In this document: piece after piece, positions 1 through 40,491 of the stretch | How positions within the stretch are numbered: position 1 is the first letter of the stretch | Layout: every line of letters begins with the position of its first letter | Source: Chiloscyllium plagiosum | Lineage: Eukaryota | Direction: 5' to 3' | Length of the DNA stretch: 64,000 bases | NCBI RefSeq assembly: GCF_004010195.1 | Contig: NC_057733.1 | Coordinates: forward strand, 40,068,441-40,132,440 | Program-made: the position numbers and the translations under genes | The notes under the pieces: model-generated | The model's input: the letters and a program-made list of their open reading frames with translations, nothing else | Databases searched by the model: none | What the model was told of the DNA's origin: nothing

Positions 1-152
1 TCAACTTTCACAACGTCTCATTGAATATTACAACAATGAAGGAGCACTTTGATCCATTGCACCTATGTTACCTCTTTGAAAGTGTCAACAATTTAGTATT
101 GCTCCCATTGTCTTTCCTCACAGCCTTACAATTTCTCCTTCAAGTATTTATC

Positions 153-355
153 CAGCATCCATGGAGAGAATAAGCTAATGTTTTGTGTCTAGATGCCTCT
201 TCATCAGAGCTGAAGAGTCTTCTGGCTGATGAACAGTCATCTAGACACAAAATGTTAGCTTGCTTTCTCACCATGGATACTGTCTGACCTGCTGTGATCT
301 CCAGAATTTGTTGTTTTCAGTACAGATTCCAGCATCGGCAGTAATTTGTTCCTAC
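153..355. mobile_element. Fold-back Penelope-like terminal-repeat fragment with two inverted, decayed hammerhead motifs
   Basis: Arms of about 153-207 and 226-282 are imperfect reverse complements. CTGATGA..GTCATCTAGAC..AAAATGTTAGC lies at 226-259 and its inverse at 174-210. Possible TSD agtatttatc/agtaattatc. Confidence 0.75.
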
Positions 356-6036: not shown

Positions 6037-7735
6037 AATGTTCTTCAATGTTTACCATGTCAACTCCTAAAGCTCTCCCAAAAATATATTTGTATTGGCA
6101 CTCCAAGAACTATTTATTCCACCATGTTGTTTTTCAAATAAAGAAAACCATGACTCCAAAAATACTGACAAGTTAATCATTAAACTCCTTCTTACATACT
6201 AACCTAAACTCATATGTCACTAGTTGAAAATCCAATGATATTAATATATATCACACCATAGATCATAGTTGTGTGACTTCATGCTTTAGGCAGTGCCTGG
6301 CACACAACTACGGAATATTTGATCTTTACAGGACTTGAAATGAATGCAACTTGCTGGTGCATTGCCAACAATTTTCCTATTGGTCTAATGCAAAGCCATA
6401 TTATTGATATGCAGTCTTGCAAAATTCACTATATATGCTTCTTTCTTTAATGTAAACACACAAAAAAAATTAAACATTGTCTTAATTTGATTACAGTTTG
6501 TGTTCAAGAATATTTTGTTTTCTATGTACCATATCACATAAAATATTCCATCTCTGTTGTGTATTATTCTTTATGTATATAGGTTATTTAATCCATTTAA
6601 TATGATTTCATCATTGGTAAATAATCACTTCAGAAAAAAAAAATCACATATCGAGTGTACATCTAACATCTGAAGGAACACAAACGATACCACAGGAAAT
6701 TCACTATATATTTGTGATAATATTAAAGCTTGTTGAAGACCTAGGGAACTGAGATTTCCTTTGCTACCATAGCAAGAAACATGAAAGCACATCATGAGAG
6801 TAGGACAGATGGTGTTTATTATCAAGGTCAGATCAGAAACCAAATTTTGATCAATGAATTTTGTTGCACCTCATTTTTCCACAGGATTGTTTGTTTTGAT
6901 CGTCAGTGTCTAAATTCCTTTCTTGACGGCACTGAACTCCCTCTTTCCTAAAATGTTGTCATCTCATTTCTCTTCGTAGCACACTGTGTTGACTTGAAAT
7001 GCCTGGTCATCTTTCTTTTGTGATACCTGTTCCTCATTAAGGCATTGAGTTCTCCATTGGAGACACCATTGAGAAAACTTTGAAGTGTGATTGGATGGAG
7101 TAAGAGGGCATAAAAGGGCAGAATGATCCATGGAAACAGAAAAGAAAAATACGAGAAGATAATTCTAAAAATGGAGCTTAGAAGGAAATGACTGAACACT
7201 TGTGAAACTGATAACAGAGATGAGGAAAGAATACAGTAAATTTGCCAAACAGCAACAATTTAAGTGGAGATGAATATAAATTAACAGGTATAAGTAGAGA
7301 ATTAATGAACGAAATAATAGGGAAATGTTCATAAAAGGAAATGGAAAAGCAATGATTGAAAGAAGAGAAAGCACACTGAATCTTTAAGTCTTACCAGATG
7401 TATTGCCTGGCTGAGTCACTGGAGATCTATCCATCATGAGAATAATACAAATAGAGTGAGGCCCAAAATAAAGGGAGACCAAAATAAATTTTTGTCTTGT
7501 TTCATTATTATTTTGTCATCATACAGGAGAGCACTCAATAACAGCTAATGGCTTTCACTTCTTTAAGCCTACTGTCACTGATTAGGAGAGAGACATACTT
7601 GTTCATTTAGTTTATGCCTTACATTTTGAATGGACTTTCTGAGGATCCATGTCTACAAGTCTACGTAATACTGAAAAGCAGCAGATAATTTTGGAAAAAT
7701 GGTGCCCTAGTTTAATGCCGTTCAATCTGACGACA

Positions 7736-7912
7736 GGGAGAAAGTGAGGACTGCAGATACTGGAGATCAGAGTCGAGAGTGTGGTGCTGGAAAAGCACAC
7801 CAGATCAGGCAGTGTCTGAGGAGTAGGAGAATTGACATTTCGGGCATGAGCCTGGCTTGTACCCGAATCGTCAATTCTCTTGCTGCCTGACCTATTGTGC
7901 TTTTCCAGCACC
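7736..7912. mobile_element. Fold-back PLE-derived element
   Basis: gtgctggaaaagcac..aggcag / ctgcctgacc..gtgcttttccagcac arms. The centre contains a hammerhead stem II remnant. Confidence 0.85.
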
Positions 7913-8521
7913 TCAATCTGAGGACAGTATTGTAATTCATTGCCTGCTGTGCACATTTCCTGGGATGGCCTATCAGAATGGCCAACAAAACCTGCAAATA
8001 AATTAAGACTTCTAACAAGTCTTCAATTAAAAAATCTCATTAATATAGATTGCTTGAGGATTGAGATTTTGGTATTTGAATTCTAGATGACTTTGTATTA
8101 CAGTTCAAATAAAATTCAGAAATATTTGACAATGACATGTAAATTACCTTCGGACAGAATCTAATGGTGTTGAGCATATAAACAGCCAGAACCTATGGTT
8201 CTTTACCATCATGATTGGGGTAAGCTTATTAGATCTTAAAACACTGAAGTGGTTATTCAGTGGGGTTTCTTTTGGGATCATTCCCAGAACAACAATGATT
8301 CAGCCGACCTGAAATTGCAGCCAATCAAGGGCTGTGAACCATAATATCACCTCAGAGCTAGTGGCCGCTTTTGTCACTGCAATTCTGAAATCCAGGAGGA
8401 ACAAGCATGGAAATTCGCAGGATGTGAGTTGGGCAGAGACTGGAGTCAGCTGGGTTGGTTACATGGGCAGGGAATAGCCTTTGGAGACAACACTGCTCTC
8501 TACTATGCATCACTTCAATTA

Positions 8522-8816
8522 AGGGAGAAAGTGAGGTCTGGAGATCAGAGTCGAAACATCAATTCTCCTACTCCTCAGACACTGCCTGACCTGCTGTGCT
8601 TTTCCAGCACCACACTCTCGACTCTGATCTCCAGTATCTGCAGTCCTCATTTTCTCCCTGTCGTCAGATTGAACGACACTAAACTACGGCACCATTTTTC
8701 CAAAATTATCTGCTGCTTTTCAGTATTACGTAGGCTCTGGCCCAAAACATCGATTTTCCTGCTTCTCGGATGCTGCCTGAACTGCTGTGCTTTTCTAGCA
8801 ACACATTCCCGACTCA
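8522..8816. mobile_element. Composite of PLE arms including an inverted copy of 7661-7842
   Basis: 8552-8733 is the reverse complement of 7661-7842 (8 mismatches in 182 bp by hand alignment). It is flanked by further arm pieces at 8522-8553 and 8734-8816. Confidence 0.85.
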
Positions 8817-8963
8817 CCCCTCCAATCATCTCAACTCATCTCTCCATTGTATTGATAGGGAATGTTGCCAGAATACAGTTCCTCATACATGCAGTCGGAA
8901 GAGGTGCTTCAATGGTCTTTACTTGACCGCTTTAGGATCTCAATTAATCTTAATTAATTCAAA

Positions 8964-10024
8964 GTTTGTAAGAAGATTTGTAGCTCAGGTGCTCGTTCTG
9001 TTCGCCGAGCTGGGAATTTGTGTTGCACTCAAACTACTGGACCTCTGCCTCACTACACACTTCACATATGAACAAATCAATGGCACACTCATGGGCTCAC
9101 CCATCTCTGGACTCATAGCAGAAGCTGTAATGCAAAGACTAGAATAAACAGTCTTACTGCAAATTCAACCCAAACTCTGGGTCAGATATGTGGATGACAC
9201 CTTTGTAATCATTAAAAACACAGAAATAGAGAACACACACTGAATCATCAACTCCACAATCACAGGAATCCGATTCACCAGAGAGGAAGAAAAGGACAAC
9301 CAACTCCCATTCCTAGATGTGATGGTACAGAGAACACCGAACGGAGAATTCACCACAAAGGTATACAGGAAAGCCACACACACAGACCAAGTCCTAAACT
9401 ACGAAAGCAACCACCCCAACACACACAAAAGAAGTTGCATCAAGACACTGTTCAAAAGGGCCACAACACACTGCAGCACACCAGAACTGCAAAAAGAGGA
9501 AGAAGAACACCTCTATAAGGTATTTGCCAAAAACGGATACCCCCGCAATTTCATCAACAGATGCCTAAGGGAAAGACAACGGACATGCCACAACCCAAAG
9601 GACGAGCCATGTTACCATACATCAAGAACATTTCTGAACTGACAGCCAGACTACTACGACCACTAGGACTCCCATAACAGCACATAAACCAACAGCCACT
9701 CTCAGACAACAACTCACCAGAACGAAGGACCCGATACCCATATAGGACAAGCCAAACAGAGAACAGCCAGGAAATTCCTAAAGGCATGGCACTCATCCAC
9801 AGATACTATCAACAAACACATTGACCTGGACCCAATATACCGGCCACTACAGCGGACACCTGGAACTGACAACCTGAAGCGGCAGAGACAAACCACTATA
9901 AATGCCGGAGGAAACAACACAGAAGCGCTTCACAGGAGGCTCCCAAGCCCTGAGGATGTCACCGAGATAGGGAATGAAACGTCTGCAACACAAATTCCCA
10001 GCTCGACGAACAGAACCACAACAA
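8964..10024 (+). mobile_element. 5'-truncated Penelope-like retroelement (pseudogenised RT, partial GIY-YIG, terminal repeat, inverted 5' repeat piece)
   Basis: Peptides YEQINGTLMGSPISGLIAEAVMQRLE, WVRYVDDTF, LPFLDVMV, TKVYRKATHTDQVLNYESNHP and NGYPRNFI, with in-frame stops. 8964-9027 is inverted relative to the 3' end. AATCTTAATTAAT at 8946-8958 and 10023-10035. Confidence 0.93.
9947..9986 (+). ncRNA. Minimal hammerhead motif in PLE terminal repeat
   Basis: GCC CTGAGGA T GTCACCG agat AGGGAAT GAAACGTC TGC. Catalytic boxes and the ACGT palindrome are intact; stem II is partly mutated. Confidence 0.7.
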
Positions 10025-11159
10025 TCTTAATTAATCAATTGATTGATTGACTATATCATTGTTCAATCCCAAGACCAAAAAGATGTCCTTCTTACCAAGG
10101 CAACGACCAGTGCAGCTGACTGCTGAACAGACCAGTGACCCATCTCCTCCTCAATGTCCATCAAATGTCATCAGCAACTGAAGACAAAGAAACAGAATTA
10201 TGCTCAATGTTGATTGGCTTCAAGAGTCAAACAGACTAACAACCTTCCAACAATGTCTCTAAAGAGTTCATTTCAATGATGTGAAAGAAATCTGGAAAGA
10301 GATGAAGACAGCATCACCTCATGCTGTAAATAAGCCATCGGCTACTATACCAAGAAACGTCAAAACTGGCTTTATGAGATTGACTGCATCATCCAAGATC
10401 TCATTAACAAGAAGAGAAAACCTCTTTTTAACTGGCAAAACAACATCGCCAGTGAGGCAAAGAGGAGAACCCATCAAACAGCAAAAATGAGAGTTACAAA
10501 GAATAACATGGGAAAGTAAGAACCAGTGGTGGACTGAAAAAGCTCAGGAGCTGCAACTCCTTGTTCACAAATGTGGCACCCAGGGTTTCTTCAATGCTGC
10601 CAATGCAAAGTACTGACCCAGCACACTTGGCCGGCAGCCTTTGCAGAATATGGATGGAACCCTTTTGAGACATGGTGAAAACATCTGTCTTCAATGGAGA
10701 TAACACTTCAATATAATACAATCATTGACGAGGACATGTTTGAGGATATTCCCCCAGTTTTTCATCAATGATGATCTTGGGTTCCCAACTAATATGTCAG
10801 AAGTTGAAACAACCATGAGACAGATGAAGAATGGAAAAGCCGCAGGAGTGGATGGGATTCCAGCAGAGATTTTCAAACTTGTAGCAGCAGAGCTTAGCCA
10901 TCATCTCCCTCAGTATTCCTGAATATCTGAGACAAAGAAGAAATCTCAGGGATGCTTCAGTCATCACCGTCTTCAAGAAAGGAAGCATATTGGACTGTGG
11001 AATTTCCCTATTCTCCATCTCCAAGAAGATCATAGCCAGAATACTCACTAAGTGCCTTCTCCCAGTCTCATCAGAAATCCTTCCTGAAAGTTTGTGAGAA
11101 GATTTGTAGCTCGGGTGCTCATTGTTGTGGTTCTGTTCGCCGAGCTGGGAATTTATGTT

Positions 11160-11199
11160 GCAGACATTTCGTCCCCTGTCTAGGTAACATCCTCAGTGC
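11160..11199 (-). ncRNA. Minimal hammerhead motif, best-preserved copy
   Basis: Minus strand reads GCA CTGAGGA T GTTACCT agac AGGGGAC GAAATGTC TGC. Stem I (GCA/TGC), stem II and the GTC cleavage triplet are present. Confidence 0.8.
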
Positions 11200-11590
11200 T
11201 TGGGAGCCTCCTGTGAAGCGCTTCTGTGTTCTTTCCTCCTGCATTTGTAGTGGCTTGAATCTGCCGCTTCCGGTTGTCAGTTCCATGAACACCAACTAGC
11301 CACGAAACGACACGACCAGCTATCCTTAGTAGCCACACACGCAGATGACAAGCAACATGAGTTCGACTGGGACAACACTACTATTATAGGATAAACCAAA
11401 CAGAGAACAGCCAGGGAATTCCTAGAGGCATGGCACTCATCCACAGATTCAATCAATAAGCACATCGACCTGGACTCAATATACCGACCACTGCAGCGGA
11501 CAGCTGGAACTGACAACCGGAAGCGGCAGATTCAAACCATTACAAATGCCAGAGCAAAGATCACAGAAGCGCTTCACAGGAGGCTCCCAA

Positions 11591-11628
11591 GCACTGAGGA
11601 TGTCATAGACAGGGGACGAAACATCTGC
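11591..11628 (+). ncRNA. Minimal hammerhead motif (2-nt deletion in stem II)
   Basis: GCA CTGAGGA T GTCATAGACAGGGGAC GAAACATC TGC. Confidence 0.65.
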
Positions 11629-13489
11629 AACACAAATTCCCAGCTCGGCAAACAGAACCACAACATCCTTTCTGAAAGCTTGTGAGACTTCCAACCAAAC
11701 TGTGGAACGATGAACATGATTTTCAGTGCTCATTAACTCCAAGAGAAATGCCAGGAATGACACCAACGACTCGACATGGCCTTCCTCGACAAGACCAAGG
11801 CTTTTGACTCAGTTAATCAGGAAGTGCTTAGGAAGACCCTGTCAAAAGTCAGCTGTCCAGTGAAATTTATCATCCTCTGTCTCCTCCATGATGGCTCTCA
11901 CCCATGATAATATGACAGAATCCTTAGATGTTAAATCATTTTTTCTGTCTTAATCACCACCAAGCTGGTGTGCACCTTGTCTACAGGATGGACAATCTCA
12001 ATTGGTTTAAATCCAAGAAAGAAACAATATCGACCTCATTTGTGGAACTTCAGTATATGGCTAATGAAAATTTTTACATCTCGCTTACTGCCTTCGCAGT
12101 AGCATACCGAAGAATGGGTCTCAGCCTCAACGTTTACCTTTACCAACACATCTGGTCAAGTTCTAGTCCATCCTTCCATTAAGATCAATGGAAAGATCAT
12201 CCTAAATGTGGAACATTTCCTTTACCTGGGAAACTAGCTCTTATCCAAGGCTGATATTGATGCGGAGATTCAACATCACAATCAATCAGTGAACACTGCC
12301 TTCGGAAACCTAAGGATGAAAGTCTTTGATGACTATGACATCCACGCTGATACTAAGATACTTGTGTATAATGCAGTCATCCTTCTCCCTCTTCTATATA
12401 GTTCTGAAACTTGGATTACTTATAGATGCAACCCCAAAAACCTTGAGAAGTACCATGCAAGTTGTTTGAGATGGATTCTCTGCATCAGCTGGGAGGACAG
12501 ATGTACTAACATCAGCATCCTTGAAGCAGACAATAGCACCATTATTGATACCATGACCATCAGAAACCAACTCCGCTGGGCCAACCATGAACTTAAGATC
12601 CTTGAGTTCTCATTATCAAAACAGATCATTCAAACAAGAGGAGGACAAAGGCGCTGTTTCAAATACACCCTGAAGGCTTCCCTCAAGAAATGCAACATGG
12701 ATGTCAACACATGAGAGATCCTTGTTCAGAAGAAGCCAATTTGGAAGAAACTCCTGTATGATTCTTTACGAACACCTGTCAGCATTAGGGAATACGGAAA
12801 AGGAACCAGATAAAGGAATCCCAATGAGCTCAAGGCCAAGGACCAATTCCACCTCCTGAAAACACCTGCCAAATGTGTGATTGGAGATATGGCTCTAGGA
12901 TTGGGCTTATCAGCCACAGAACCCACAGAACCCATGACCAGTGACACAGAAGTTTCAAGGTGGGCAATCATAGTAATTTACAAGTGATTGCTGACGATAA
13001 ATTAATTAATCTTAAGGGGCCTCCCTGACCAGAATCCACACAATTATCGTCCCCTCCTATTGACTTCATTGCTGCTTTGTGGGATGGGAGATTCCAAACT
13101 GTGAAATGCTTTGGTTTGTAGTAGTGTAAATTGCGCAGAGTGGTAGGACTAAATGTTCCTAGCCCCTGAATGATCTGGAATTTAATGAGTCAGCTGGGAA
13201 AAGATCGTGCATGGTAAAAACTGAGATCCTCAAGGGTTGAGAAAAAAAGTCTGCGTCTACAACTAAGTGTTGAGCAGTGAAATGAGAATCTCAGTAGTGT
13301 GTGATAAAAGGCCAGTTAGCATATACTTGTCATCAGAACCTAACCTCACCTCTTTGATAAGCAGTTTCCCGTTCTCCTGTGAACCAAATAGAAAATAATT
13401 CCTGACAAGAAAGTCAGAGTGTGTACTTAGCGACTCCAGCTCACCACTTGCTCCTTTAGGCCCCCATCTTGGACAGCAGTCCACAGAAT

Positions 13490-16277: not shown

Positions 16278-17900
16278 TAGAAGATAGAACAGCATTAATC
16301 AGGTCATTTGGCCCATCATAGCTGTGCCGCCCATGACACCATTTCTAAATTAATCCCATTTACCTGCATATGCTCCATATCCCTCTATTACCTGCCTGTT
16401 CATAAGTCTGTTTAAACGCCTCTTAAACTTTGCTATGTGCTTGCTTCTACCACCTCTCCTGGCAGTACATTGCAGGCATCTCCCTTCTTCTCTATAAAAG
16501 ACTTTCCTTGCACATCTCCTTTAAAATTTCCCCCTCTCATCTTAAACCTATTCCCCAAGTATTTGACATTTCCAAAAGGGAAAAAAGAATCTGAGTATCC
16601 GTGCCCATAATAATTTTACATACTGCCCTCAGCCTCCAATACTCAAGTGAGAACAATCCAAGTTTGTCCTACCTCTCCTTTTAGCTAATATATTCCAACC
16701 AGGCAACATCCTGGTAAACCTCCTTTGCACCTTCGCCAAAGCTTCCACATCTTTCCCTTACTGTGAAGACCAGAACTGTATACAATACTTCAAATGTGGC
16801 CAAACTAAAGTCTTTTACAGCTCCAGCACGACTTGCTAGCTTTCATGTTCAATGCCCCAACTGATGAAGGCCAACATGCCGCATGCCTTCTTTCCAACCT
16901 TATCCATTTTCAGGAAACTTATGGGCGTTCACCCTAAGATCCCTCTGTATACCAATACTCTTGGCATTTACTGTAGATTTTCCTGTTGCATTTGACCTCC
17001 TAAAATAAATAATTTCACACTTGTCTGGCCATATATACTCCAACTGATTTATATCATGTTGCATCCTTTGATAATTTTCTTCACAATAGTGAGGTGCGGT
17101 GAAAATAGTGCGGTGAAGAAGGCATATGGCGTACTGGCTTTTATTGGTAGAGGAATTGAGTTCCGGAGTACTGAGGTCATGTTGCAGTTGTATAAGACTC
17201 TGGTGCGGCCGCATCTGGAGTATTGTGTGCAGTTTTGGTCGCCATACTATAGGAAGGATGTGGAGGCACTGGAACGGGTGCAGAGGAGGTTTACCAGGAT
17301 GTTGCCTGGTATGGTAGAAAGATCGTATGAGGAAAGGCTGAGGCACTTGGGGTTGTTTTCATTGGAGAAAAGAAGGTTTAGGGGTGACTTGATAGAGGTG
17401 TACAAGATGATTAGGGGTTTAGATAGGGTCGACAGTGAGAATCTTTTTCCACGTATGGGGTCAGCTATTACAAGGGAGCATAGCTTTAAATTAAGGGGGG
17501 GTAGGTATAGGACAGATGTTAGGGGTAGGTTCTTTACTCAGCGAGTCGTGAGTTCATGGAATGCCCTGCCAGTAGCAGTGGTGGACTCTCCCTCATTATG
17601 GGCATTTAAGCGAGCATTGGATATGCATATGGAGGATAGTGGGCTAGTGTAGGTTAGGTGGGCTTGGATCAGCACAACATCGAGGACCGAAGGGCCTGTA
17701 CTGCGCTGTATTCTTCTATGTTCTATGTTCTAATCCACAATTCCATCATTTTCATGTCATTTCTAAACTTACTAATCGGGCCATCTGCCATTTTCACACA
17801 GATCATTGATCTACATTTCAAGCACCAAAGATACCACCACTGATCCTTTCAGAACACCATTGGTCGCAGACCTCCATTAAGAAAAAAACACCTCTCCACA
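16278..17900 (-). mobile_element. Older CR1 3' portion, interrupted by a younger CR1 at 17090-17732
   Basis: Tail at about 16278-16330. RT similarity (..QRMQHDINQLE..PDKCEIIYF) continues collinearly at 17732-17900. Confidence 0.85.
17090..17732 (+). mobile_element. Young 5'-truncated CR1 with uninterrupted RT C-terminal frame
   Basis: ORF to 17652: AVKKAYGVLAFI..LYKTLVRPHLEYCVQFWSPY..WNALP. Followed by a 3' UTR and (TTCTATG)n tail. CpGs retained. Confidence 0.96.
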
Positions 17901-18280: not shown

Positions 18281-18674
18281 ATTCATGATTTTAAGCAAGA
18301 AAGCTGATCAGATATTTTATACTATTTGCAACAGAAAAGCAATGTTCTGGAATCAGTTCATTTGACCATTGAATTTAGAGAAAATTTTTGAGAATGTTAA
18401 ATAAGTTATGATCATGGGAGAATTCTGAAATAGTATTCTGGTAACCATAAAAACATACTTAGATGATTATCAAGTAATCAAAGACACAAGAAATGAATGT
18501 TCTGGTGGATTTTATGATATATCACATAGACAGTTACATACAGGGTTATAGGCATTTGGGAATTAACCAGGAAATTAGAAAAATAGAAACTTTGGAGTCT
18601 GAAAATACATTACTGTTTGGGAACCAATACAAAGATGCTAGAATTATAAAGGAGAAAGGCTAGAACTTAAAACT

Positions 18675-18860
18675 CAAGCATGTGGTGCTGGAAAAGCACA
18701 GCAGGTCACGCAGTATCTGAGGATGCAGTATCCCTCATCATGAAGGACTTTTGCCTGAAATGTTGATTTTCCTGATCCTCGGATGCTACCTGACCTGTTG
18801 TGCTTTTCCAGCACCACACCCTTGACTCTAACCTCCAGTATCTGCAGTACTCACCTTCAC
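18675..18860. mobile_element. Fold-back PLE-derived element with perfect 15-bp TSD
   Basis: CTAGAACTTAAAACT at 18660-18674 and 18861-18875. Inverted arms. Hammerhead remnant ATGAAGGACTTTTGCCTGAAATGTTGA at 18740-18766. Confidence 0.9.
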
Positions 18861-19299
18861 CTAGAACTTAAAACTGACTAACAGAAAGTTAAAAGCTTTG
18901 ATTGCAAAAATATTGGACATACAGTATAAGGCCAATGGCTGGAAATTAAATGGAAGATCAATTGCAGCAGTAGGAGTGCTTAAGAAATCCACAGTAATGG
19001 TTGTACCAAGAAAGGAGGTGGGTCTTAGAAATCTAGCAGGAGTACAGGTGAGACTTGTTCCCTCAGAACCAACTAGGTGTTCGCTTAGGATAGTCAAGAG
19101 AATTCTTCCTCAATTATTGTTAAGGAGAGTCAAACTATCAAAAGTTCTGGTTGTATTATCTCCAAGGGAGAAGTGTTTTCTTACACCTCCAAAAAAAAAG
19201 TAAATTTATAAAGAAAGATTTGAAGACTTTGTTCAAAGAGGAGAGGTATTCCCAGACTCTTCTCATCAATGAAGCAAACGAGCATGGAAATTGAGTGAC

Positions 19300-20200
19300 A
19301 TTGGAACAATTCAGGCACTGATGCTGAATGATGGTATAACTTGCCTTTCAGAAGGGCTAATGAAGGAACAACTTGGAGATATAAGCACAATTCATCAACT
19401 GGTCCCATTGCATAGAGTTGTAATTAAAAAAAACTGAGTAAGTGGAGAGCTTCTAGTTGGAGCAGTATATCACATCACAATAGAAAGAATTGATTTTATC
19501 TTGAGGAATTACCTGATGGTTCATAAATATTAGCTGCACTGAGGAACAGCCAATGGAAGTGAACATAAACTAATTTCTTGCAGGAGAAAAATGCAGATTG
19601 TTTTCTAACTATATTATGACTAGATCGCAGGTCCATGGAATTAGATGGGAAGAGAATAAATTTGATACAAAAGAGAAATACATTGCAAATTAATTTATCT
19701 GACATTATTTTTGAAAACAAGTGAAATAGAAGGTAAAGAGAATGAGGCTGAAATTTTTATCCCTCCCTTATTTACTAGTTCGCTGAGATACTAACAGTCA
19801 CATGGAAAGCTAATGGTCCTAATGGTTAATCCCTTTTGAATTAACATGCTGACTCTTATACAGCCTTATTAAACTGTCCATCTCATCCACTTTGGTGTGA
19901 TTTAGTGTCATCAAAATTACTGATAGGTAGAAAACTGAAGACTTAACTCCCTGTTTTACTAAAGATGCTAATCCACTGCTGAGTCTAAGAAACCATAAGG
20001 CTGTTTTAAATAGATAACACAATGCAAGATGGTTGATACATTTGAAGCAAGGGCAATGGATATCAATAAGAGATGTTAACAGGACTTGTACACTCATTCA
20101 ACAGGCAATAGATCTGTTAGGGATTGAATATTTTCTGTAATGCTGAAGATGTTGCATGAAGTCACCTCAAAAACCTTATTCCATTGCAGAACAATTGTAC
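19300..20200 (+). mobile_element. Very old CR1-like ORF2 remnant
   Basis: Faint, ordered SPGPDG-, WKxANV/YRPIS- and FDKVPH-like traces at about 19630, 19802-19875 and 20150. Confidence 0.35.
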
Positions 20201-20985
20201 TGAAATGATTGTTTGGGACAGAACTCGTGAGGAACATAATGACGATAGTGACAGTCTAAGGAGAGTGCAAGGTCAAGATCAAATTCATAGTCATGATCAA
20301 AATTGAGATCAAGAGTCTGGAATTCAAAGTCATGTCAATCTTCCAGATCCAAAGAATTTGTGGAATCAGAAACGTGGGGAGGAATGAGGTCGTCAAAATG
20401 GATGCTAACAATGTGAAAAATCTTGGGGAGAGGAAAAGATTTTGCATAATTTAATGTGAACAAATGAATGATTTTTTTCGTCATATGTATTTTACAGTGA
20501 GAAACCAATCAATGACAGTGAACGATTTGAATAGTTTTAAGAATAAGAAAAAAAGGAAGAAATAGCTTAAAGAGTGTCCATCAGTCCTGAACAAGCTCAT
20601 CAACAATGCCGCCTATACCACCATCCCTTCTCCACCATCTCACCATCATCGATGCTGAAACCAACCAGCGGTGAAGTTACCACTCTTTAGACCACACCTT
20701 TTGGTGCCAGATCAATGTTCCTCCATCACTGCCTAATTAGCGCCTACGCTGGACCCACTAAAAGCAGAGTCACATTGCTTGTCATTGCTTGTCACATTGC
20801 TGTGATGTCCTACCACCGCAGCCAGAGTTGGAACCTACCAACGATGAAGTTACCAATCCTCAGTTGGTATCTTACACCCTGGGCCTACCTCACTCATGTC
20901 ACCTCCACCAACATAGCAACTGCTGATTCCAATGTCAGGTCCCATTCCTGCCCCAGAAATGTAAGTAGGTAGGGGTTCACTTCAA

Positions 20986-21498
20986 TTCATGCTGGGCCCA
21001 ATCGGGTCTGTGCTAGGTCCACTCGAGTCAACACTGGGCCCCACTTCGGTCCATGCTGGGCCTATTCCTGTCCAAGCTGGGCACCACTCCAGTCCATTTG
21101 GGCTCACTCCAGTCGTGCTGGGCCCCACTCCTGTCCATGCTAGGCTCCACTCGAATCCATGTTGGGCCCACTCCAGTCTGTGCTGAGCCCCACTCCAGTC
21201 CATGCTGGGCTACTCAAATCCAAGCTGGGCCCCACTTCAGTCTGTGCTGGGCCCACTCGAGTCTATGCTGGACCCAATCGAGTCCACGCTGGGCCCCACT
21301 CCAGTCTGTGCAGGGCCCCACTCCAGTCCATACAAGGCTCACTCCAGTCCATGCTGGGCCCCACTCCAGAGCATGTTCTCCCCACTCCAGTCTGTGTTGG
21401 CCCCACTCCAGTCTGTGCTGGGCTCACTCCAGTCTATGCTGGGCTCACTCCAGTCTGCGCAAGGCCCAACTCCAGTCCATGCCGGGCCCACTCCAGTC
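20986..21498 (+). repeat. GC-rich minisatellite block 1 (21-22 bp unit GCTGGGCCC(C)ACTCCAGTC[CAT/TGT])
   Basis: More than 20 tandem diverged units, seen directly. Confidence 0.97.
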
Positions 21499-22168
21499 AT
21501 AGAGTCATAGAGTCATAGTCATGAGTGGCAGGCAAACAATTCCAAATTGTCCATGCCGACCAGATATCCTAAATTAATCTAGTCTCATTTCCCAGTACTT
21601 GGCCCATATCCTCCTATTCATAAACCCATCCAGATGCTTTTTAAATGCTGTAATTGTATGAGCCTCCATCACATCCTCTGGCAGCTCATTCCATACACGT
21701 ACCACCCTCTGTGTGAAAAGGAAAGACCTTGGTTATTCACCCTATCCATGCCTTTCATAAGTCTATTAACTAAATCAACCCACTGGCCCACCTGATCAAG
21801 ATCCTGTTGTACTATGAGGTAACCTTCTTCGCTGCTCACTGCACCTCCAATGTTGGTGTCATCTGCAAACTTACTAACTATACCTCTTATGCTCACATCC
21901 AAATCATTTATATAAATGATGAGAAGCAGTGGACCCAGCATTGATCCTTGTGGCACTCCACTGGTGACAGGCCTCCAGTCTGTAAAACAATCCTCCACCA
22001 CCACCCTCTGTCTTCTACCTTTGAGCCAGTTGTTTCAAAATGGCTAGTTCTCCCTGTATTCTATGAGATCTAATCTTATTAACAAGTCTACCATGAGGAA
22101 CCTTGTCAAGCACCTTACTGCAGGCCATACAGATCACATCGACTGCTCTGCACTCATCAATCCTCTTC
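21498..22168 (-). mobile_element. Internally deleted CR1 inserted in the minisatellite
   Basis: ORF 21669-22004 ([31 protein letters not shown]), the KVLDKVPHGRL peptide, and a (catagagt)n tail at 21498-21525. Confidence 0.93.
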
Positions 22169-22171
22169 ATG

Positions 22172-23236
22172 CCAGCTCCAGTCCATGCTGGGCCCACTCC
22201 AGTCTGCGCTGGGCCCACTCTGTGACAGGCCCACTTGAGTCTGTGATGGGCCCACTCGAGTCTATGCTGGGCTCACTCATGTCTGTGCTGCCCCCACTTG
22301 AGTCTGTGCTGAGCCCACTTGAGTCCATGTCAGGCCCACTCCAGTCCATGCTGGGCCCACATGCGTCTGTGTTGGGCCCATTCCAGTCTGCACTGGGCTC
22401 ACTCCAGTTTGTGCTGGGCCCACTTGAGAACACACTGGGCCCACTTGAGTCTGTGCTGTGCACACTTGAGTCTGTGCTGGGCCCACTCAAGTCTGTTCTG
22501 CGCACACTCGAGTCTGTGCTGTGCCTACTAGAGTGTCTTCTAGGAGAAAGTGAGGACTGCAGATGCTGGAGATCAGAGCTGAAAAATGTGTTTCTGGAAA
22601 AGCGCAGCAGATTAGGCAGCATCCAAGGAGCAAGAGAATCGATGTTTCAGGCATAAGAAGGGCTTATGCCTGAAACGTCGATTCTCTTGCCCCTTGGATG
22701 CTGCCTGACCTGCTGCGCTTTTCCAGCAACACATTTTTTACTCGAGTGTCTGCTTGGCCCACTCGAGTTTGCGCTGAGTCCACTCGAGTCCATGCTGTGC
22801 CTCACTCGAGTCTGAGCTGTAGCCACTTGAGTCCATGCTGGGCCCACTTGAGTCTGCGCTGGGCCCAGTTGGGTCCACAATGGGCTCACTTGAGTCTGCG
22901 CTGGGCCTACTCGAGTCTCTGCTGGGCCCACTTGAGTCTGCGCTGAGCCCACACGAGTCCATGCTGTGCCTCACTCGAGTCTGCACTGGGCCCACTCGAG
23001 AACATGCTGGGCCCATTCGAGTCTGCGCTGGGCCCACTCGAGTGTGCACTGAGCCCACTCGGGTCTACGCTCGGCCTACTCAAGTCTGCATTGAGCCCAC
23101 TCAAGTCCACGCTGGGCCCACTGGAGTCTGCACTGGGCCCACTCGAGTCTGCACTGAGCCCAATCAAGTCTGCACTGTGTCCACTCGAGTCCACGCTGGG
23201 CCTCACTCGAGTCTGTGCTGGGCCCAGTCAGGTCCA
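22172..23236 (+). repeat. Minisatellite blocks 2-3 (21-bp unit GCTGGGCCCACTCGAGTCTG[T/C]), split by a PLE fold-back
   Basis: About 40 tandem units, producing LGPLESA heptad pseudo-ORFs. Confidence 0.97.
22540..22739. mobile_element. Fold-back PLE-derived element in the minisatellite
   Basis: Arms of about 76 bp (22582-22657 and 22663-22738) with a 5-nt loop. Partial hammerhead GAAGGGCTTATGCCTGAAACGTCGA. Flanked by tact(a/c)gagtgtct. Confidence 0.92.
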
Positions 23237-24849
23237 CAATGGTTTCACTCTCCACCATTGATGGCATCCAAGCTCAGGACAGGACAAGAGGTCAGTAAAG
23301 AGAAGGAGAGAAAAAAATACAAGACAAGACAAAAAACCTGAAAGAAAAGTGGTCAGAGTGGATGAGTCCTGGCTCTGGAACTGTACTCCGCTGTCATCTT
23401 GATGATATGATGGATATTTCTAAAAAAGGCTAATACTGAAGACTGCAATTAGCTCCATCCAATCTGATAATGTCATACAATTTTGGGTAGGGATGAGGCA
23501 CAATATTTTAGGAACTTATAGAGTGCAGATCTTCATACGCAAGTTTCCTTACACAATTTTAGTAATAATTGCTGTTATGAAATAAATTACATCTTGTTAA
23601 GTCAAAAGTCTCTTCTTGTAGAGACTCAATAGTAGTTGCTCCTCTACCACCATAAACTAGATGAACCCTTAGCCCAGCCGAGGAAAGAGGAATGGTGGCA
23701 ATATTCTTCTACCCCTCGATGCTGCAATTATTGTATTGTCCTGACTATACTGACACATTAAATAACACTATAACAGCACCATTTGCCATGAAGCAAATGT
23801 TCACTGGAACAAAGGGCAACCATTGGAAAGCAATCCAGTTTTTTTTTCATTGTAGTGTCAGCCTGAAGAAAATCCAAAATGAATATTATTAGTTTTATAA
23901 GAACTAACACAGAGTTTAGATGTACAGTAGATTCCATATTTCACGAGGTCTCATCTGGATTCCTATGTCTTGAAACTACTTTAAATTCTAAGAAAGAAAA
24001 TACATTGTATTCCGGCATGTGACTTTAGAGATGTTTACAATTCGGACGAGAACCTGATTAGACTATTTATGGTCTCTGGTTTAGACACTGCTCAGTGCTT
24101 TCAAAACGGGTGATTTGCAATACATCTATGAGACAGTGACAGGTTAATTTTGTTTTTGTAGCAGTTACATTCATAAGTTACAAATTGTACTGCGTTTTAC
24201 ATTACAGGTATCAAAATATGACTTTATTTTAGAAAATGTAGAGAAACCCACAAATTGCTCCCAAGAATTCAAGGCACTTGATATTTTTCCAAAATGCGGA
24301 AAATATTTGGAAGAAAATGAAAACATTCTGACTGTTTTTTTCTGGCACTTGAAGTATTTCAAGAATATTCCAACTCTTCCTAATTATTTATTAAATGATA
24401 GATTTAGGACTGGAAACAAGAATCAGCTGAAACAGTGGTCACTAAACTTTTACAAGTTTTACATCTTATAAATTTGTAATTCAAGGTAGAGTTAATTGTA
24501 GATAAATGCACATTAATCGAGCAAACAGGCAACAAGGGAGAAATTAGCCCTCATTACACCTGTTTATGGACAAAATAGTGACACAAATTGGAAGAAATTC
24601 ATTGGACGAGTTTCCAGGTCCCAAGAACACCTCAGATTGCATTGTTCGTTTTTCAGTTGTGTCTGGTATTAATCCATTGGATATGCTAATCAATGGCTTT
24701 TGAAATGCTTTCAAAATTAATCTAGGAACCAATTGACACTCCTTGACAAAGACTGAAACAGCCTTTGATGAAAACTGCAACAAAGAACTATGATTATCTT
24801 CATATGAGTAAGCAGTTTGTATGGAAACTTATGACCTCATTGATGCATA

Positions 24850-25132
24850 TGTTCTCAGGGGCTTTATATCTAGAGGGGTAATTTCTCTTTGTGTGAGAAT
24901 CTAGGGCCAGAGGCCATTATTGCAGAATAAGGGGTTGCATTTTTAAGACAGAGATGAGGAGGGTTTTCATCTCTTAGAGTGTAGTGAATCTATGGAATTC
25001 TTTACAGCAGAAAGTAGTCAAGACTGGATCATTATGCACTTTCAAGTCTGAAGTAGACAAATTGGTAAGAAAATCAAGGGTTGTAGGGGAAAGGCACGAA
25101 AGTGAAGTTGAGGGTTTTCAGAACAGCCATGA
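24850..25132 (+). mobile_element. CR1 3' end fragment
   Basis: tttaagacagagatgaggagg..gtagtgaatctatggaattc..cagccatga. Confidence 0.8.
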
Positions 25133-25229
25133 ATGTAATTTTTAATTTGCACTGCAACAAATCAAACTTGCATTAACACCACCTCCCAACCCTATGATCT
25201 TTGTCACTGAGAGAATCAAGAGCAGTAAT

Positions 25230-25340
25230 ATATTGGTCTACCACAGTTCAAGAAGACCCATTGTTACTTTGAGGGCATCTAGTGATGGACAATTAAATGA
25301 AGCCCTGCCAGCATATCCATCCTCTGAAGAATAGATGAAA
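25230..25340 (+). mobile_element. SacSINE1/CR1-type 3' tail fragment
   Basis: cagttcaagaag..gagggcatctagtgatggacaattaaatg..ctgccagc, the inverse of about 40495-40560. Confidence 0.5.
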
Positions 25341-25416
25341 TGAATGATTGTTTATTGATCCAGGTGGAAAGTATAAAAGAATGTCATTATCAACTATTCC
25401 CTACTTTCCTACCATA

Positions 25417-25786
25417 TAGAGGTTTATAAAATCATGAGGGGCATGGATAGAATAAATAGACAAGGTATTTTCCCCAGAGTGGGGAAGTGCAAAACTAGAG
25501 GGCATAGGTTTAAGTTGAGAGGGGAAAGATTTAAAAGGGACCTAAGATGGAACCTTTTCACACAGAGGGTGGTGTGTGTGTATAGAATGAGCTGTCAGAG
25601 GAAGTGGTGGAGGCTGGTACAATTACAACATTTAAAAGGCACCTGAATGTATAAATGAATAGGAGGGGCTTTCAGGGATATGAGTCAAATGCTGGCAAAT
25701 GGGACTAGATTAATTTAGGATATCTGGTTGGCATGGACGAGTTGGTCCAAAGGATCTGTTTTCATGCTGTACGTCTCTATGACTCT
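25417..25786 (+). mobile_element. CR1 3' end
   Basis: ORF 25434 (MRGMDRINRQGIFPRVG..TRGHRFKLRGERF) and ctctatgactct tail. Same subfamily as 21498-22168. Confidence 0.92.
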
Positions 25787-26364
25787 CCAGCAGTGAAAAT
25801 TACTTTTTTTAAAAAAAGTTACTGACTGTAAAGGACATTGGAACTCCCAAAATTGTGAAGAACTCTATGTAAATGTTTAGTTTTAAAATTCAGTTATTAT
25901 TTAATTATGGACCAATTTTGAGAATATAGGACGAATGTTTCAAATTTATCATCTTCACATTTGGTTTGTTCCATGTCATTTGAATGCACTAGATCTGAAA
26001 ATCTTGACCTCAGGTCAGCCAATTATTGGAGAAGGACGTCTTTCTCCTGGATCGAATATACAATAACATCTGTGATTGACTTGCCCTCCCACTACTACCT
26101 CCCCAACCCTGCCATCTTCTCCACCCTTCCCTGCACCCGAGTGTTGCTATTGGCAAGGCAAGGGGAACAGAATTTGTTTTTGATAATAACTGAGCTGCCA
26201 ATAAATGTCTAACAGTTACTGTCAGCTCACCCAAATGATTGCAGTAAGGGCTGATGAACTGTGTGTTGAAAAATGGGTTTCATCAAACGTTAATCCCGTC
26301 AGGTCTGATTTTTGTCATGTATTAATTGTTACCGATACATTCAGCATTTCTGTTTGCTGTGGCT

Positions 26365-26625
26365 GAAGCCTGGCAGTTTTGGATGGGCAGCCTGGGTCCC
26401 CAGCAGTTTCGACAGTCCCCTGTGCTCAGCGGTTTTGACATGCCCTTAGTTCTTGACAAGTTCGGCAGGTCCCTGGTCCTCAGCAGTTTCAACAGCACCT
26501 AGTCCTCAGAGGTTTCAACCAGCGCCCAGGTCTTGGTGGTGTCGAGAGGCACCAGTCCTCTGCAGTTTTGACATGGTCTGGTCCTCGGCAGTTTCGAGAG
26601 ACCCATAGTCTTTGGTAGTTGCACC
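26365..26625 (+). repeat. Degenerate minisatellite (about 27-30 bp, core GTCCTCAGCAGTTTCGACA)
   Basis: About 9 recurrences of cagcagtttcga / cggttttgaca variants. Confidence 0.8.
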
Positions 26626-26869
26626 AGCACTCCCTCCCCCTTCCCCCATCCTCAAAAATTGAGCAGGCCCCATTCTTCGCAGTGGATGGTTTGTGAAACC
26701 AAGATGACATGGAATTAACAAAAAATTATGCTTGACTTAACTTTGTCTCTTCTATTATATATAAATTATGTAAATAAATGGCACTGTTTCCATGGTGATT
26801 TGTATACATTTTGCTGTATTTTCGCAAATACAATTAACAATAAATATCTGTCTATTTGTATTTTTTAAC

Positions 26870-27680
26870 TTGTGAGAGACAGGGATATTTAGAAGGAATT
26901 CCATATTCATCTAAACAAATCACACAAAGTTAAAAAGCTGGTGTACAACAAATTACAGTATAATTACAGTATAAGAGTAATAATACAACAATACAGGTTT
27001 TGATAAGGCTACATCTGGACTGTTTTGATTCAGATCTATACTTCCTTGGAAGGAGTACAATAAATATAGTCTAACTCTTGGGATGAGGAGATTGGGGTCT
27101 AGATTAGAATGGTGCTGGAAAAGCACAGCCGGTCAGGCAGCATCCGAAGAGCAGGAAAATCGACGTTTCGTTTTGCCCGAAACATTGATTTTCCTGCTCC
27201 TCTGATGCTGCCCAACCGGCTGTGCTTTTCCAGCACCACTCTAATCTAGACTCTGATTTCCAACATCTGCAATCTTCACTTTTGCCTGGATGAGGAGATT
27301 GACCTATGAGAAGAAATTGAGCAAGGTGGAGTGATAACCAATGGAGTAGTAGAAGAAGGAGAAATGATCTAATTGAAATAAGGAACACTCTTAAGGATTT
27401 TGACTGGGTAGGTGCTGAGTAAATATTTCCTTGGCTTTGGAACATGAAGTGACAAGGTGATGAGAAGTTTCTTTCTTGAAAAGATTAAGAAACCTGGAAT
27501 TTCCTACTTGAGAGAGCTGTGGATGGTCAGTCACTGAACATATTCAAGATAGGGATCATTAGATTTTTGGGTGTTAAAGGATATGCTGTTAGTTTGGAAA
27601 GGTAATGTGGAGGTAGGCACTCAGTTTTGGACTTGTTGAATTTGCAGAATGGACTCAAAGGGCCAAATAGCCTATTCCAG
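26870..27680 (+). mobile_element. Old CR1 3' portion containing a PLE fold-back
   Basis: Decayed LIRLHL..LEGVQ..YEKKL..DLIE..NLEF path and a CR1 tail near 27670. Confidence 0.7.
27095..27287. mobile_element. Fold-back PLE-derived element with perfect 14-bp TSD
   Basis: GGATGAGGAGATTG at 27081-27094 and 27288-27301. Arms of about 74 bp (27097-27170 and 27178-27251). Confidence 0.93.
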
Positions 27681-37160: not shown

Positions 37161-39649
37161 TTAAAATTTTTTTGGTGGATAGAGTTACAATTGGAGGTTT
37201 CACGTTGAATATTTCCTCAGCTTTAGCATCATGCACTTCCCTCAGCAGACCTGAGATCCACCATTGACTGGAATGTGAAATCACCTAACCACTTTTAATA
37301 TAATGGTAATTAAACTAGAAAGAAGTAAGACTCAAAACACTGGTCACTGTACTTCTGCTTGCTGAAGAGTTCCAATTTTGAAAGAGGGTGGGTCCAATTG
37401 CTACAGTATAGTATGAAAAAAATAATTATGGAATCAGACAGCAAACAAAAATGATATTCAGCACATAGTATTTTCGTGCAGTCGAAGCATGTCCAATTAG
37501 TCTAACTTGTTGCCCCATTACCATCAAATATTTCCTTTATACATAGATATCCAATATTTTCTTTTTGAAAGTCACCATTGAATCTGCTTCCACCAACCTT
37601 TCAAGCAATGCATATGGAAGTAATTTTTTTTTAATTGTATCTTTCACTAACTCTTTGCAGGTGTTTGTCTTTCTTCAGCGTGTCTTACAAAAATATTGGT
37701 TGCAAAATGTTCTTTCACTTAAAGTAATATTATTATACTGCTTTAGATTCCCAACAACAGCGGTGGACATTGTCATAAACAGTGGTACTTCCTCATGGCC
37801 CAGTTGATACTGATTGCCATCCAGACTGGCAGCAGTTTCAATCAATAGCTGGCTTAGATGGATCTAAATATTTTGACTGTTGATATCAGAGTTACATTTT
37901 CAGTTCTGTTAAAAACTTACAGAATTGGAATTAACAATATTTCAGTCACTACGACTTGAACCAGCAGACCTGTAACCAATTATATGTAAATGTGCTGGCT
38001 AATATTTCCTAAAAAATGGACAGATCAGAGCACAAGCATGCACAGAGCAAAGGGGTAAAAATGTAAAGAGTAAAGATCGCAGGAGCAACATTCATTTTAT
38101 GCAGGATTTTCTTGCTTTTTTTAAAAGAAAATTGCAAGATAAATATTGCGAAAAGTGGGCCAAAGCTGTTTTTATTATGAACTCTGCTGACCCAGGATCA
38201 GACTTGATTTAGCAATAATTTATTATCAATGTGCAAAGAGAAAAATAGATGCCACTGTCCAGTTTAGAATTGTTCAAGCTAACTTTTCTGTCAATGTGCA
38301 TGTTTATTTGAACAAAATCCTTTGTTCGGAGTGTTGACTTATGTTGTGATTACCATTATTTGAAACTGATGAAAATCTCACTTTTCATAAAATAACTCCA
38401 ATTTACTTTTATTGGCATCTTGATTGGATGCAAATCTGCAAAGGATGGAATAATTGAGAGAAGTAACACTGTCAAAGTGAATGAAGCTAATTATTTGCAT
38501 GGGCAATAAATGATCTTAAAGAAACAGCAGCCAGATTACCACTGTAATTCTCTCAACAATTTAAACACAATTTAGTCATTTGTAGTCTTAAAAAGAAGAA
38601 ACACATAGTTGTATATCATCTTATCAAGTCCTAAGGATTTTCCAGAGGAGTTAAACATTTAAATTAATTCAAATATTTTTAGAATTTCTTCAGATTCAAA
38701 AGTGTTCCTGCTGAGCCAGCCATGACCCTGCTACCCTTTGCTCTCTTCTCTTCTCTTTCCCTTTCCTCCTCACCTCCTGGAGTTTCCGTTTTCTTTTTAA
38801 TGATGTCTTCTGACCTGGGTCCTCAGAAAATTACCTGCGACCTGATCTTGAACCTGCTGCCAGCCTCATTCCACACTAGTAGCTTCCAAATCGAATTAAA
38901 CTGAGACCTGACCTTGAGAATGGCTTGGGCCAATTGTTGGTGACATTGAGTGGGTGGTACAATGGCAGAGATTAGCCCTCGTGTTCAAATATGTATGTGA
39001 ACCTTCAACTTCTTTGCATCAGTGTTAACATTGTAATGTGAAAAGCATCAAAAACAAAATAAGCTTGTTGCCTCTTTGAAAATGTTTTTGCTCTACTCTC
39101 CCACTGGTGCTCCAGCACAACAAGCATGTTCATTTCCAAGCATCACTAGCTTTTCACTTTGGAAGCAAATGAAAGGGCCAAGACATATCTTTCAGCCCAC
39201 TCAATCTATCACTGTAGATCAGTAAAGATACAGAGCAGACTCTCAGACACTCTGTAAATTGGATAATGGATGGGGAAATCCTTATATCGATTAATCTTTC
39301 AACAGCACCTGGAACTAAACAGGCTAACTTCAATATATTTCTGTCCATTTTGTAATATAATCAATTGATTTGAGGAATATGTTGTTAAGCTGTTCTGTGA
39401 CAATATTACACCTTCTGTTCATACCTCACCTGAATACGGAATCCTAAAATGTAGCCTGTGGCCCATTGTGGTTGTTCTGGTTCTTTAAGAGAAATACCAA
39501 GTTAGTTCCAGTCCTCTTCTTGCCCTAGCATCCATTCTTTTCCTTTTAATACAATGGGTTTCAAAGCAATGTGGTCTTTGTAAATGAAAAAAGAAAGGAC
39601 ACAATTCTCACCCAAAATGTACTATCACATTTAACTAACAAAAAAAACC

Positions 39650-39852
39650 TGAAGAAACTCAGCAGACTTGCAGGGATCTGTGCAGAGAGAAACAGAGTTA
39701 ATGTTTCAAGTCCAGCTTCAAAGAGGAGTCATCATGGATTTGAACCGTTAACTTGTTTCTCCCTCCACAGATCCTGCCAAACCTGCTGAGTTTCTACAGC
39801 GATTATTGTTTTTTTTATTTCAGATATCCAGCATCCGCAGTATTTTGTTTTT
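39650..39852. mobile_element. Fold-back PLE-derived element
   Basis: agaaactcagcag..gatctgtg.agagagaaacagagttaa / ttaacttgtttctccctccacagatc..ctgctgagtttct arms around a hammerhead remnant. Confidence 0.85.
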
Positions 39853-40491
39853 ATACCAGTGCGGTTTAACTTTGCTTTTTGAAATGCTTTCATTTACAAA
39901 CCTGCTTTGTGAAATCCTGAGGCCACCCGCTAGTTGGGTTTTTGCCTGCTGTGCTTTAAAATGTGGGCTTCGTTGTGAGAATCGACTAGTCAGGAGTTTT
40001 GGCAGCCACAGATTATGGCCTTCTGAACTATTCCACAGACATCTACAAATGGCCTATTCCTAATCTTCGCAGTGCTGTTAATGAATCGGAGTAGACAGTT
40101 GTGCAAGGCCAAAATTAAACACATTATGTATTAGTTGTATTTTTTAAAAATGCCATGCGGTGCACCTGTGTTTGTTCCTACAACTGGTCAGATTTTTGTA
40201 TTGAATTCAATAGATTTATTGAGCAATGTAGTTTGAAAGCCACATCTGACATTTGCTGATGGACATCTGGTCAAGTTCATGAAATCCAAGTGTGTGGGTG
40301 TTCTAGGTACTGAGTAATCAACCACTCCCACATTGCTGCCTGCTCATGAATGCAGCCTTCATTGCAGCTTCATTTCATCTTAAGATATACTTGTAAGCTT
40401 TTGGGAGATTCACAAGCCATCTTCAAGATTTGCTGGACATTTTCCATTCGCATAACATTAGACCCTGTTTCACTGACGGACAATGTTTTTA

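Follow-up and report, generated by a model that had tools for sequence, protein, structure and literature searches.

Palindromic mini-elements of the shark Chiloscyllium plagiosum lie at the short end of a continuum formed by Penelope-like element insertions

In a stretch of 64,000 nucleotides from the shark Chiloscyllium plagiosum (contig NC_057733.1, positions 40,068,441 to 40,132,440; hereafter the window), a reading made from the sequence alone had marked six places (153, 7736, 18675, 22540, 27095 and 39650) as palindromic mini-elements of about 190 bp, folding back in or next to a hammerhead ribozyme motif. What kind of element leaves such hairpins, and why is their apex found in the ribozyme? 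We conclude that insertions of a Penelope-like element (PLE) form a continuum and that the hairpins lie at its short end. They are the shortest form of an already described PLE insertion rather than a new class, and are to be annotated as PLE, not as a miniature inverted-repeat transposable element (MITE) or a retrozyme. Each hairpin arm is almost certainly a hammerhead-bearing pseudo-long terminal repeat (pLTR) of an abundant PLE.

The Parent Element

Arms were counted in 140 stretches of 10 kb, taken at round coordinates from 37 large contigs (1.4 Mb, 51,913 N; an arbitrary rather than a strictly random choice), and the counts were extrapolated to the genome of 3.56 Gb. The 198 arm-matching loci comprise 49 short head-to-head pairs, 147 single arms and 2 simple same-strand pairs, which corresponds to approximately 129,000 hairpins (95% interval 96,000–171,000) among approximately 520,000 loci, weak matches counted. 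The hairpins grade into solo arms and into inverted copies at the kilobase scale. Many single arms extend upstream into a pyrimidine-rich untranslated region (UTR) and then into an open reading frame (ORF), and locus L034 codes for a reverse transcriptase (RT) and a GIY-YIG domain immediately before the sequence forming the end of the hairpin arms; the Pfam matches of L034 fall under the curated cut-offs (GIY-YIG, E=0.0017; RVT_1, E=0.00035). Homologs carry RT, PF28514 and PF26215, some of them also GIY-YIG, the closest (92%) being a protein of Chiloscyllium punctatum. The hairpins, accordingly, have their terminal sequence in common with an element encoding RT and then GIY-YIG. A first look for the RT segment of this element across the genome gave 63,761 candidates. 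A CxxxxCxxC linker precedes the GIY-YIG motif in 6 of 9 long loci tested. Since a CX2-5CxxC linker upstream of GIY-YIG marks the Neptune and Nematis clades (PMC8557442), the linker motif alone suggests a Neptune/Nematis label for the element.

Locus L205 is a partial tandem, in which 3′ UTR, hammerhead and tail lead directly into the N-terminus of the ORF and the RT, and the tail continues into sequence in the same way at L007 and L097. The repeated end of the element consists of the hammerhead, approximately 65 nt and a tail of 35 nt, and in the partial tandem it precedes the ORF as well. Therefore, the arm represents the pLTR/ORF junction, found at both ends of the unit. Most long element copies (L171-L225) adjoin assembly gaps (N), as expected of inverted or tandem PLE structures, and the assembly counts of long forms are probably too low.

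Hairpin Copies in the Window

Positions such as +60 or −32 take as their origin the base that directly follows the predicted hammerhead cut (GTC^). The copies are composed as follows (strand in brackets; “none” if no strand was assigned):

18660..18674 (+): left target-site duplication (TSD) of copy A, 15 bp, exact
18675..18724 (−): tail-less inverted arm of copy A, approx. +7 to +59
18725..18739 (none): central junction insert of copy A, partly repeating the arm’s own GCAGTATC
18740..18860 (+): long arm of copy A with decayed hammerhead core, pLTR and tail, approx. −25 to +95
18861..18875 (+): right TSD of copy A
22527..22538 (+): left duplication of copy B, 12 bp, 1 mismatch, within a tandem array
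22539..22657 (−): long arm of copy B with tail, 5′ end at approx. −14 to −17
22658..22739 (+): tail-less arm of copy B, approx. −23 to +59; stem II and cut site kept, without CTGANGA
22740..22751 (+): right duplication of copy B
27081..27094 (+): left TSD of copy C, 14 bp, exact
27095..27170 (−): tail-less inverted arm of copy C, approx. −9 to +66
27171..27287 (+): long arm of copy C with tail, approx. −16 to +97
27288..27301 (+): right TSD of copy C
7722..7927 (none): copy D, of the family of A, B and C, with TSD at 7722-7736 and 7913-7927 (15 bp, 1 mismatch)
7737-7852 (−) and 7854-7912 (+): long and short arm of copy D, apex at stem II
39649..39855 (none): hairpin with one-sided tail and like layout, from a different family; old, no clear TSD by eye
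153..345 (none): hairpin with one-sided tail, from a third family; CTGATGA on both arms

Hairpins were found at all six places, and the flanking duplications reported for the family of copies A to D were recovered. Arms of A, B and C measure 51–84 nt with 86–93% complementarity, those of the copies at 7736, 39650 and 153 measure 37–46 nt with 83–86%; the label “near-perfect” does not fit copy A, whose matched arms are separated by 50 nt. The six copies had also been treated as one group. Four of them do form one family, but the copies at 39650 and 153 were not matched by these four in BLAST and are, judged by sequence, members of other families with a like layout; no TSD of 13–15 bp was seen at 39650 on inspection by eye. 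Copy B sits inside a tandem array of GC-rich short units, and for this reason its duplication is weaker evidence of a TSD. The array forms two blocks of a degenerate repeat (20973-21500 and 22176-23250), the second of which includes copy B. For copy C, a fold of −124.3 kcal/mol is predicted (z −20.4), which none of 200 shuffled sequences reached. Contigs from three other public runs contain both outer junctions of copy C, with a few percent of flank differences, so these junctions are not an assembly artefact; the centre of the copy was spanned by no contig of those runs.

At a distance of 700 bp from copy D, there is an inverted copy of its long arm and of 79 nt of the adjoining flank (8524-8815 versus 7658-7842, 95% identity). 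It has the private substitutions of copy D and is fused to a tail-less arm from another subfamily. It resembles the product of a 3′ transduction or of an insertion templated locally, which took place after copy D had aged.

Outer Ends and Target-Site Duplications

Sixty-three head-to-head pairs of at most 2.5 kb had enough flank for a TSD search. A score of at least 10 was reached by 38 of them, compared to 0 of 150 shuffled flank pairs, and a score of at least 9 by 43, compared to 2 of 150. The end counts use these 43 TSD-flanked pairs, i.e., 33 short hairpins and 10 pairs with 0.1–1.6 kb between the repeated ends, the remaining 20 being omitted. TSD length varies from 9 to 17 bp and is 13–16 bp in 32 of the 43; no target-site motif was seen beyond a GC content of 37%. 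In every one of the 43 pairs, one arm ends at +91..+102, while the other ends at +53..+68 (36 pairs) or +26..+45 (7 pairs), the modal ends being approximately +96 and +60. Thus, the description of the hairpins as one full and one clipped arm was accurate throughout. Solo arms flanked by a TSD were detected as well: 27 among 109 candidates, versus 0 of 120 in the control. The 11 found in the sample end at +60..63 (4) or +94..98 (7); since solo arms use both ends, +60 counts as an independent end. An old hairpin at L031:1389-1652 has tails on both arms, and approximately 36 nt of inverted flank are duplicated on both sides, without a TSD.

Inner Ends, the Hammerhead Motif and the Position of the Apex

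The starts of 214 sampled arms are distributed unevenly: 50 are upstream of −60 and reach far into UTR or ORF, 10 lie at −60..−37, 59 at −36..−28, 28 at −27..−21, 31 at −20..−4, 10 at −3..+1 and 26 at +2..+20. The density is 0.4 starts per nt at −60..−37 versus 6.6 per nt at −36..−28. The main 5′ boundary, accordingly, is approximately 32 nt upstream of the cut, at the 5′ edge of stem I and at an ATTCC common to all subfamilies, and the intact cut site is included in 178 of the 214 arms. Young copies picked by their 3′ part alone also have a boundary at −36..−28, and TSD-flanked solo arms have the same 5′ boundary as the hairpins. Loose ends at the boundary base occur in three other runs, too, where subfamily differences upstream contribute. 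Among 35 unbiased junctions, both arm ends fall within −36..+1 in 27, and at least one arm spans the cut in 32. Mapping the apex against the cleavage site, as had been proposed, thus places it in or near the ribozyme; most arms run through the cut, and arm starts pile up at −36..−28.

We prefer to read the −32 boundary as what is probably a transcription start. Its letters fit the initiator consensus pyrimidine-A-N-T-pyrimidine. A splice acceptor at −32 was considered and rejected, as the letters before the boundary are not AG. At L078:4988-5236 and at approximately 1890 in L007, element sequence rejoins the −32 boundary directly in like orientation, as if the RT had jumped between templates upon reaching the 5′ end of the RNA; other runs also list comparable back-joints, to L205 617-619.

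The motif itself was called from core letters and topology only. All parts of a minimal type-I hammerhead are present (core letters, an extra base after A9, stem II, a palindromic 15.2-16.2 and a short stem I). Forty-eight distinct copies of the motif are listed, stem II folds, and one variant has 27,107 exact copies. Rfam reported no hammerhead at the gathering threshold in the window and none, up to E=10, on a copy whose stem I is perfect. Allowing one mismatch, 24 of 33 hairpins keep CTGANGA on at least one arm (20 on a single arm, 4 on both), and the other 9 have lost it on both. The statement that the fold-back usually removes CTGATGA therefore applies to 3 of 4 window copies tested, but not genome-wide. 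The PLE hammerheads of Cervera and de la Pena 2014 (PMC4209133) are alike in CUGANGA, the extra base, a stem II opened by G-C, GAAAC-GUC without stem III, and a short stem I. Minimal metazoan PLE hammerheads are mostly dispersed singles, some forming opposite-strand pairs 100–700 bp apart (PMC4209133). What sets the predicted ribozyme of the shark apart is that it is often clipped in hairpins and would be buried in a long duplex.

Junctions Between the Arms

Fifty junctions were compared (23 from the sample, 15 from a hairpin-biased search, 8 from young copies and 4 from long-copy loci). The arms meet via 1–4 nt of microhomology or short inserts, with inserts in 25 junctions and blunt or overlapping arms in the other 25. 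Microhomology of at least 2 nt was found in 15 of the 25 insert-free junctions, compared to 20% expected (p=1.4e-5). Most sampled junctions are unique. One junction (−31/−26, 3 nt overlap) recurs with 1,864 exact matches, and both stem-II loops are readable in 1,545 of them. The 100 matches listed show five loop variants. By hand count, 94 of them have the same variant on both arms, compared to 38 expected, and the most distinct variant is paired with itself in all of its 21 cases. Because the variants match on both arms, this junction must have formed repeatedly, from one source per event, and hairpins form at insertion. Identity is 92.5% within a copy, arm against arm, compared to 84.7% from copy to copy (n=41); even so, an arm matches its own partner best in only 44%. 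This comparison had been suggested from the sequence alone, and the idea that copies become palindromic at each insertion is upheld by it and by the recurrence of one junction in several subfamilies.

In 26 of the 50 junctions, it is the tail-less arm that extends further 5′, in 22 the tail arm; the first situation cannot result from fold-back of one tail-primed cDNA. A cDNA primed at +60 cannot template the tail either; two primings followed by end-joining fit both cases.

Proposed Origin of the Hairpins

Taking ends and junctions together, we are moderately confident that a hairpin is a minimal head-to-head PLE insertion, for which two cDNAs were primed separately, one by each nicked strand of the target, close to the 5′ end of an uncut RNA. 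The endonuclease would nick the target with a stagger of approximately 14–15 bp, and RT would be primed at approximately +96 by one strand and at approximately +60 by the other, on the pLTR/ORF junction. On the 5′-most copy of the repeat, both cDNAs would run off at an RNA end near −32 that is probably the start of transcription. The two cDNA ends, being of like sense, would be trimmed and joined where the self-complementary letters of the hammerhead supply microhomology, and the gaps would be filled in. Priming on the 3′ copy of the repeat would give long, ORF-containing arms, and single priming would give solo arms. According to this model, the apex lies in the ribozyme owing to the position of the ribozyme, which fills 35 nt at the start of the RNA, and not owing to cutting. 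The template may be the full mRNA in cis or solo-pLTR read-through in trans, and the hairpins themselves are most likely dead by-products.

Several observations weigh against this proposal. An intact full-length element was not found among 55 loci picked by RT or N-terminus, most long copies abutting N gaps. A TSD accompanies only 27 of the 109 solo candidates, the seven arms ending at +26..+45 lie away from both preferred sites, and inserts occupy half of the junctions, some long ones probably being alignment failures in diverged arms. Concordance of the arms cannot tell one RNA from two RNAs of common source. Arms starting exactly at the cut number 6 of 214, compared to 1.5 expected (p=0.005, uncorrected); several of these can be put down to stem-I microhomology or CpG decay, and a minority of cleaved templates is possible. 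Concerning the transcription start, no pile-up of RNA starts was seen in 3′-type single-cell reads, which possibly stem from another species and are paralogue-derived; family reads occur there on both strands, none on the flanks of the locus, and given their paralogous origin these reads speak neither for nor against expression, a start site or editing. A cap-derived G before the boundary is not in excess (13 of 45). Alternatively, the −32 boundary could be an endonuclease cut in the element’s own DNA, which is conceivable because the enzyme of an anole PLE prefers ATT in its pLTR (PMC11167929).

Alternative Explanations

A possible, if clearly less probable, explanation retains the PLE origin but lets one strand prime itself by folding back, e.g., on an antisense template, with endonuclease resolution setting the tail and possibly the −32 boundary. 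Antisense self-priming was proposed for head-to-head PLE junctions by Arkhipova et al. 2013 (PMC3846280), and the tail has been ascribed to endonuclease resolution (PMC8557442). The apex is exactly at stem II in 86 loci, and the agreement of subfamily between both arms of the recurrent junction would also be expected of a fold-back. However, folding back of a tail-primed cDNA needs the tail arm to be furthest 5′, which fails in the 26 junctions mentioned. Moreover, the most recurrent junction of the sample would require a loop of 2 nt, half of the junctions contain inserts, and there are solo arms that end at +60 and have a TSD of their own. An antisense-template version with resolution on either side may be considered.

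The sequence-only reading had favored short ribozyme-processed RNAs mobilised in trans as a retrozyme-like class, which we now regard as improbable; it is largely refuted for most copies. The small excess of starts at the cut is in its favor, animal retrozymes do derive from PLE pLTRs (bioRxiv 10.64898/2026.07.22.740005), and the flank of copy D carried along at 8524-8815 indicates some secondary copying. Nevertheless, most arms, and at least one arm in nearly all unbiased junctions, span the cut at which units of such RNAs would be bounded. Ribozyme cleavage is dispensable in vitro, and in the parts covered of the anole study no RNA-seq reads end at the cut (PMC11167929). Non-LTR retrozymes (PMC7229834; bioRxiv 10.64898/2026.07.22.740005) are similarly non-coding, hammerhead-bearing and PLE-derived, but they form head-to-tail units with complete ribozymes and circular RNA, whereas the shark has head-to-head pairs with truncated ribozymes: head-to-tail ribozyme arrays were not seen, simple same-strand pairs make up 2 of 198 loci, and both arms are complete in 4 of 33 hairpins.

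It is similarly unlikely that a few palindromic masters were transcribed and amplified in the manner of MITEs or short interspersed elements, giving families with fixed junctions. The 1,864 matches of one junction would suit such masters, and four of its five sampled carriers have short tail-less arms (+27, +32, +33 and +54; the fifth, L078, +60), as expected of 5′-truncated second-round copies. Against this, the five loop variants matched on both arms point to repeated origin, the junction accounts for a small share of approximately 130,000 hairpins, and the other sampled junctions are mostly unique. MITEs are comparable to the hairpins in being short, non-coding, numerous and of inverted-repeat shape. 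However, instead of a fixed TSD, symmetric terminal inverted repeats and a DDE partner, the hairpins have TSDs of variable length, asymmetric ends, a variable centre and a parent with RT and GIY-YIG; no DDE partner was seen. Retrotransposition, which had been claimed from the long variable TSDs, is thereby supported.

Least probable of all is a later loss of the centres of long head-to-head insertions through hairpin or cruciform deletion, akin to the later deletion of the hairpin apex that had also been suggested: long palindromes are unstable and 10 of the 43 pairs are long inverted copies with shared TSDs, but deletion leaves the −32 boundary, common to solo arms, without reason, and short hairpins have not diverged more than long copies (88.5% versus 89.3%, p=0.30), some being among the youngest (98–100% identical to the query).

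Other Elements in the Window

A second Penelope family occupies 8960-11665, 3925-4366 and 57678-57929. Its ends are inverted head to head, motifs resembling a hammerhead lie at 9950, 11167 and 11594, and an RT-region ORF is present in broken pieces at 9030-10050; in its motifs, the family resembles the Poseidon type. RT fragments of long interspersed element (LINE) type are located at 1012-1521, 12238-12714, 16698-17732 and 21669-22034, one of them with an internal inversion, and may be CR1/RTE-like. When six ORFs of the window were searched in Pfam, the sole match was RVT_1 in the LINE fragment 21669-22034. A head-to-tail duplication of 194 bp with 99% identity (61750-62137) is either recent or an assembly artefact.

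Comparison With Known Insertions

PLE insertions with an inverted 5′-truncated pLTR, a one-sided tail of 30–40 bp and a TSD have been described (PMC3846280; PMC8557442; PMC8969392). The complex insertions of endonuclease-positive PLEs (PMC3846280; PMC8557442) are like the hairpins in that their ends lie head to head within one TSD, only one arm has a tail (approximately 35 nt), 5′ truncation is strong, partial tandems occur and the pLTR contains a hammerhead. They differ from those of the shark, in which nothing but the pLTR is left of either arm (approximately 190 bp, no ORF), the extrapolated number is approximately 130,000, TSDs are mostly 13–16 bp instead of the 8–10 bp of rotifer examples, and the 5′ boundary is sharp.

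The closest biochemical counterpart is Poseidon_Ac of Anolis (Frangieh et al. 2024, PMC11167929), with a hammerhead at the pLTR/ORF junction and uncleaved RNA as template. In vitro, both target strands are nicked and extended, ribozyme mutants insert normally, and the tail is bounded by two internal RT start sites, the far one approximately 85–92 nt after the cut, compared to approximately 96 in the shark (PMC11167929). Poseidon_Ac belongs to another clade, the shark element having a Neptune-type linker, and neither joined head-to-head products nor a fixed 5′ boundary are described in the parts of that account covered here; PLE integration steps after first-strand synthesis are stated there to be unvalidated (PMC11167929).

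The proposed two-strand priming in the shark may also be set beside a system outside the PLEs. In L1 twin priming, reportedly described by Ostertag and Kazazian in 2001, the second target strand primes a second cDNA, leaving an inverted junction with short microhomology. The second site of L1 is said to be variable and its pieces non-overlapping, whereas the shark has a preferred second site and arms copying one region.

Implications

A partial literature search, with Repbase and Dfam outside its scope, revealed no description of the shark hairpins or of PLE twin priming; either database may have an entry for the family. A description of palindromic Penelope derivatives was looked for in Kojima 2018 and not found (0 matches to “palindrom” in PMC5753468). 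The published ideas for the inverted repeat and the tail, antisense self-priming and endonuclease resolution, differ from two-strand priming. We consider the chances evenly balanced that the hairpins record, as fossils of approximately 100,000 events, two-strand priming at two internal sites on an uncleaved RNA whose 5′ end lies at the first stem. If true, one mechanism would account for inverted pLTRs, one-sided tails and solo pLTRs, and the hammerhead would here be a joining scaffold, not a cutter. With approximately 130,000 small TSD-bounded events, statistics of ends and junctions are able to separate models of integration. Finally, if many of them are intronic, the hairpins would, hypothetically, be a large source of RNA duplexes of approximately 60–80 bp.

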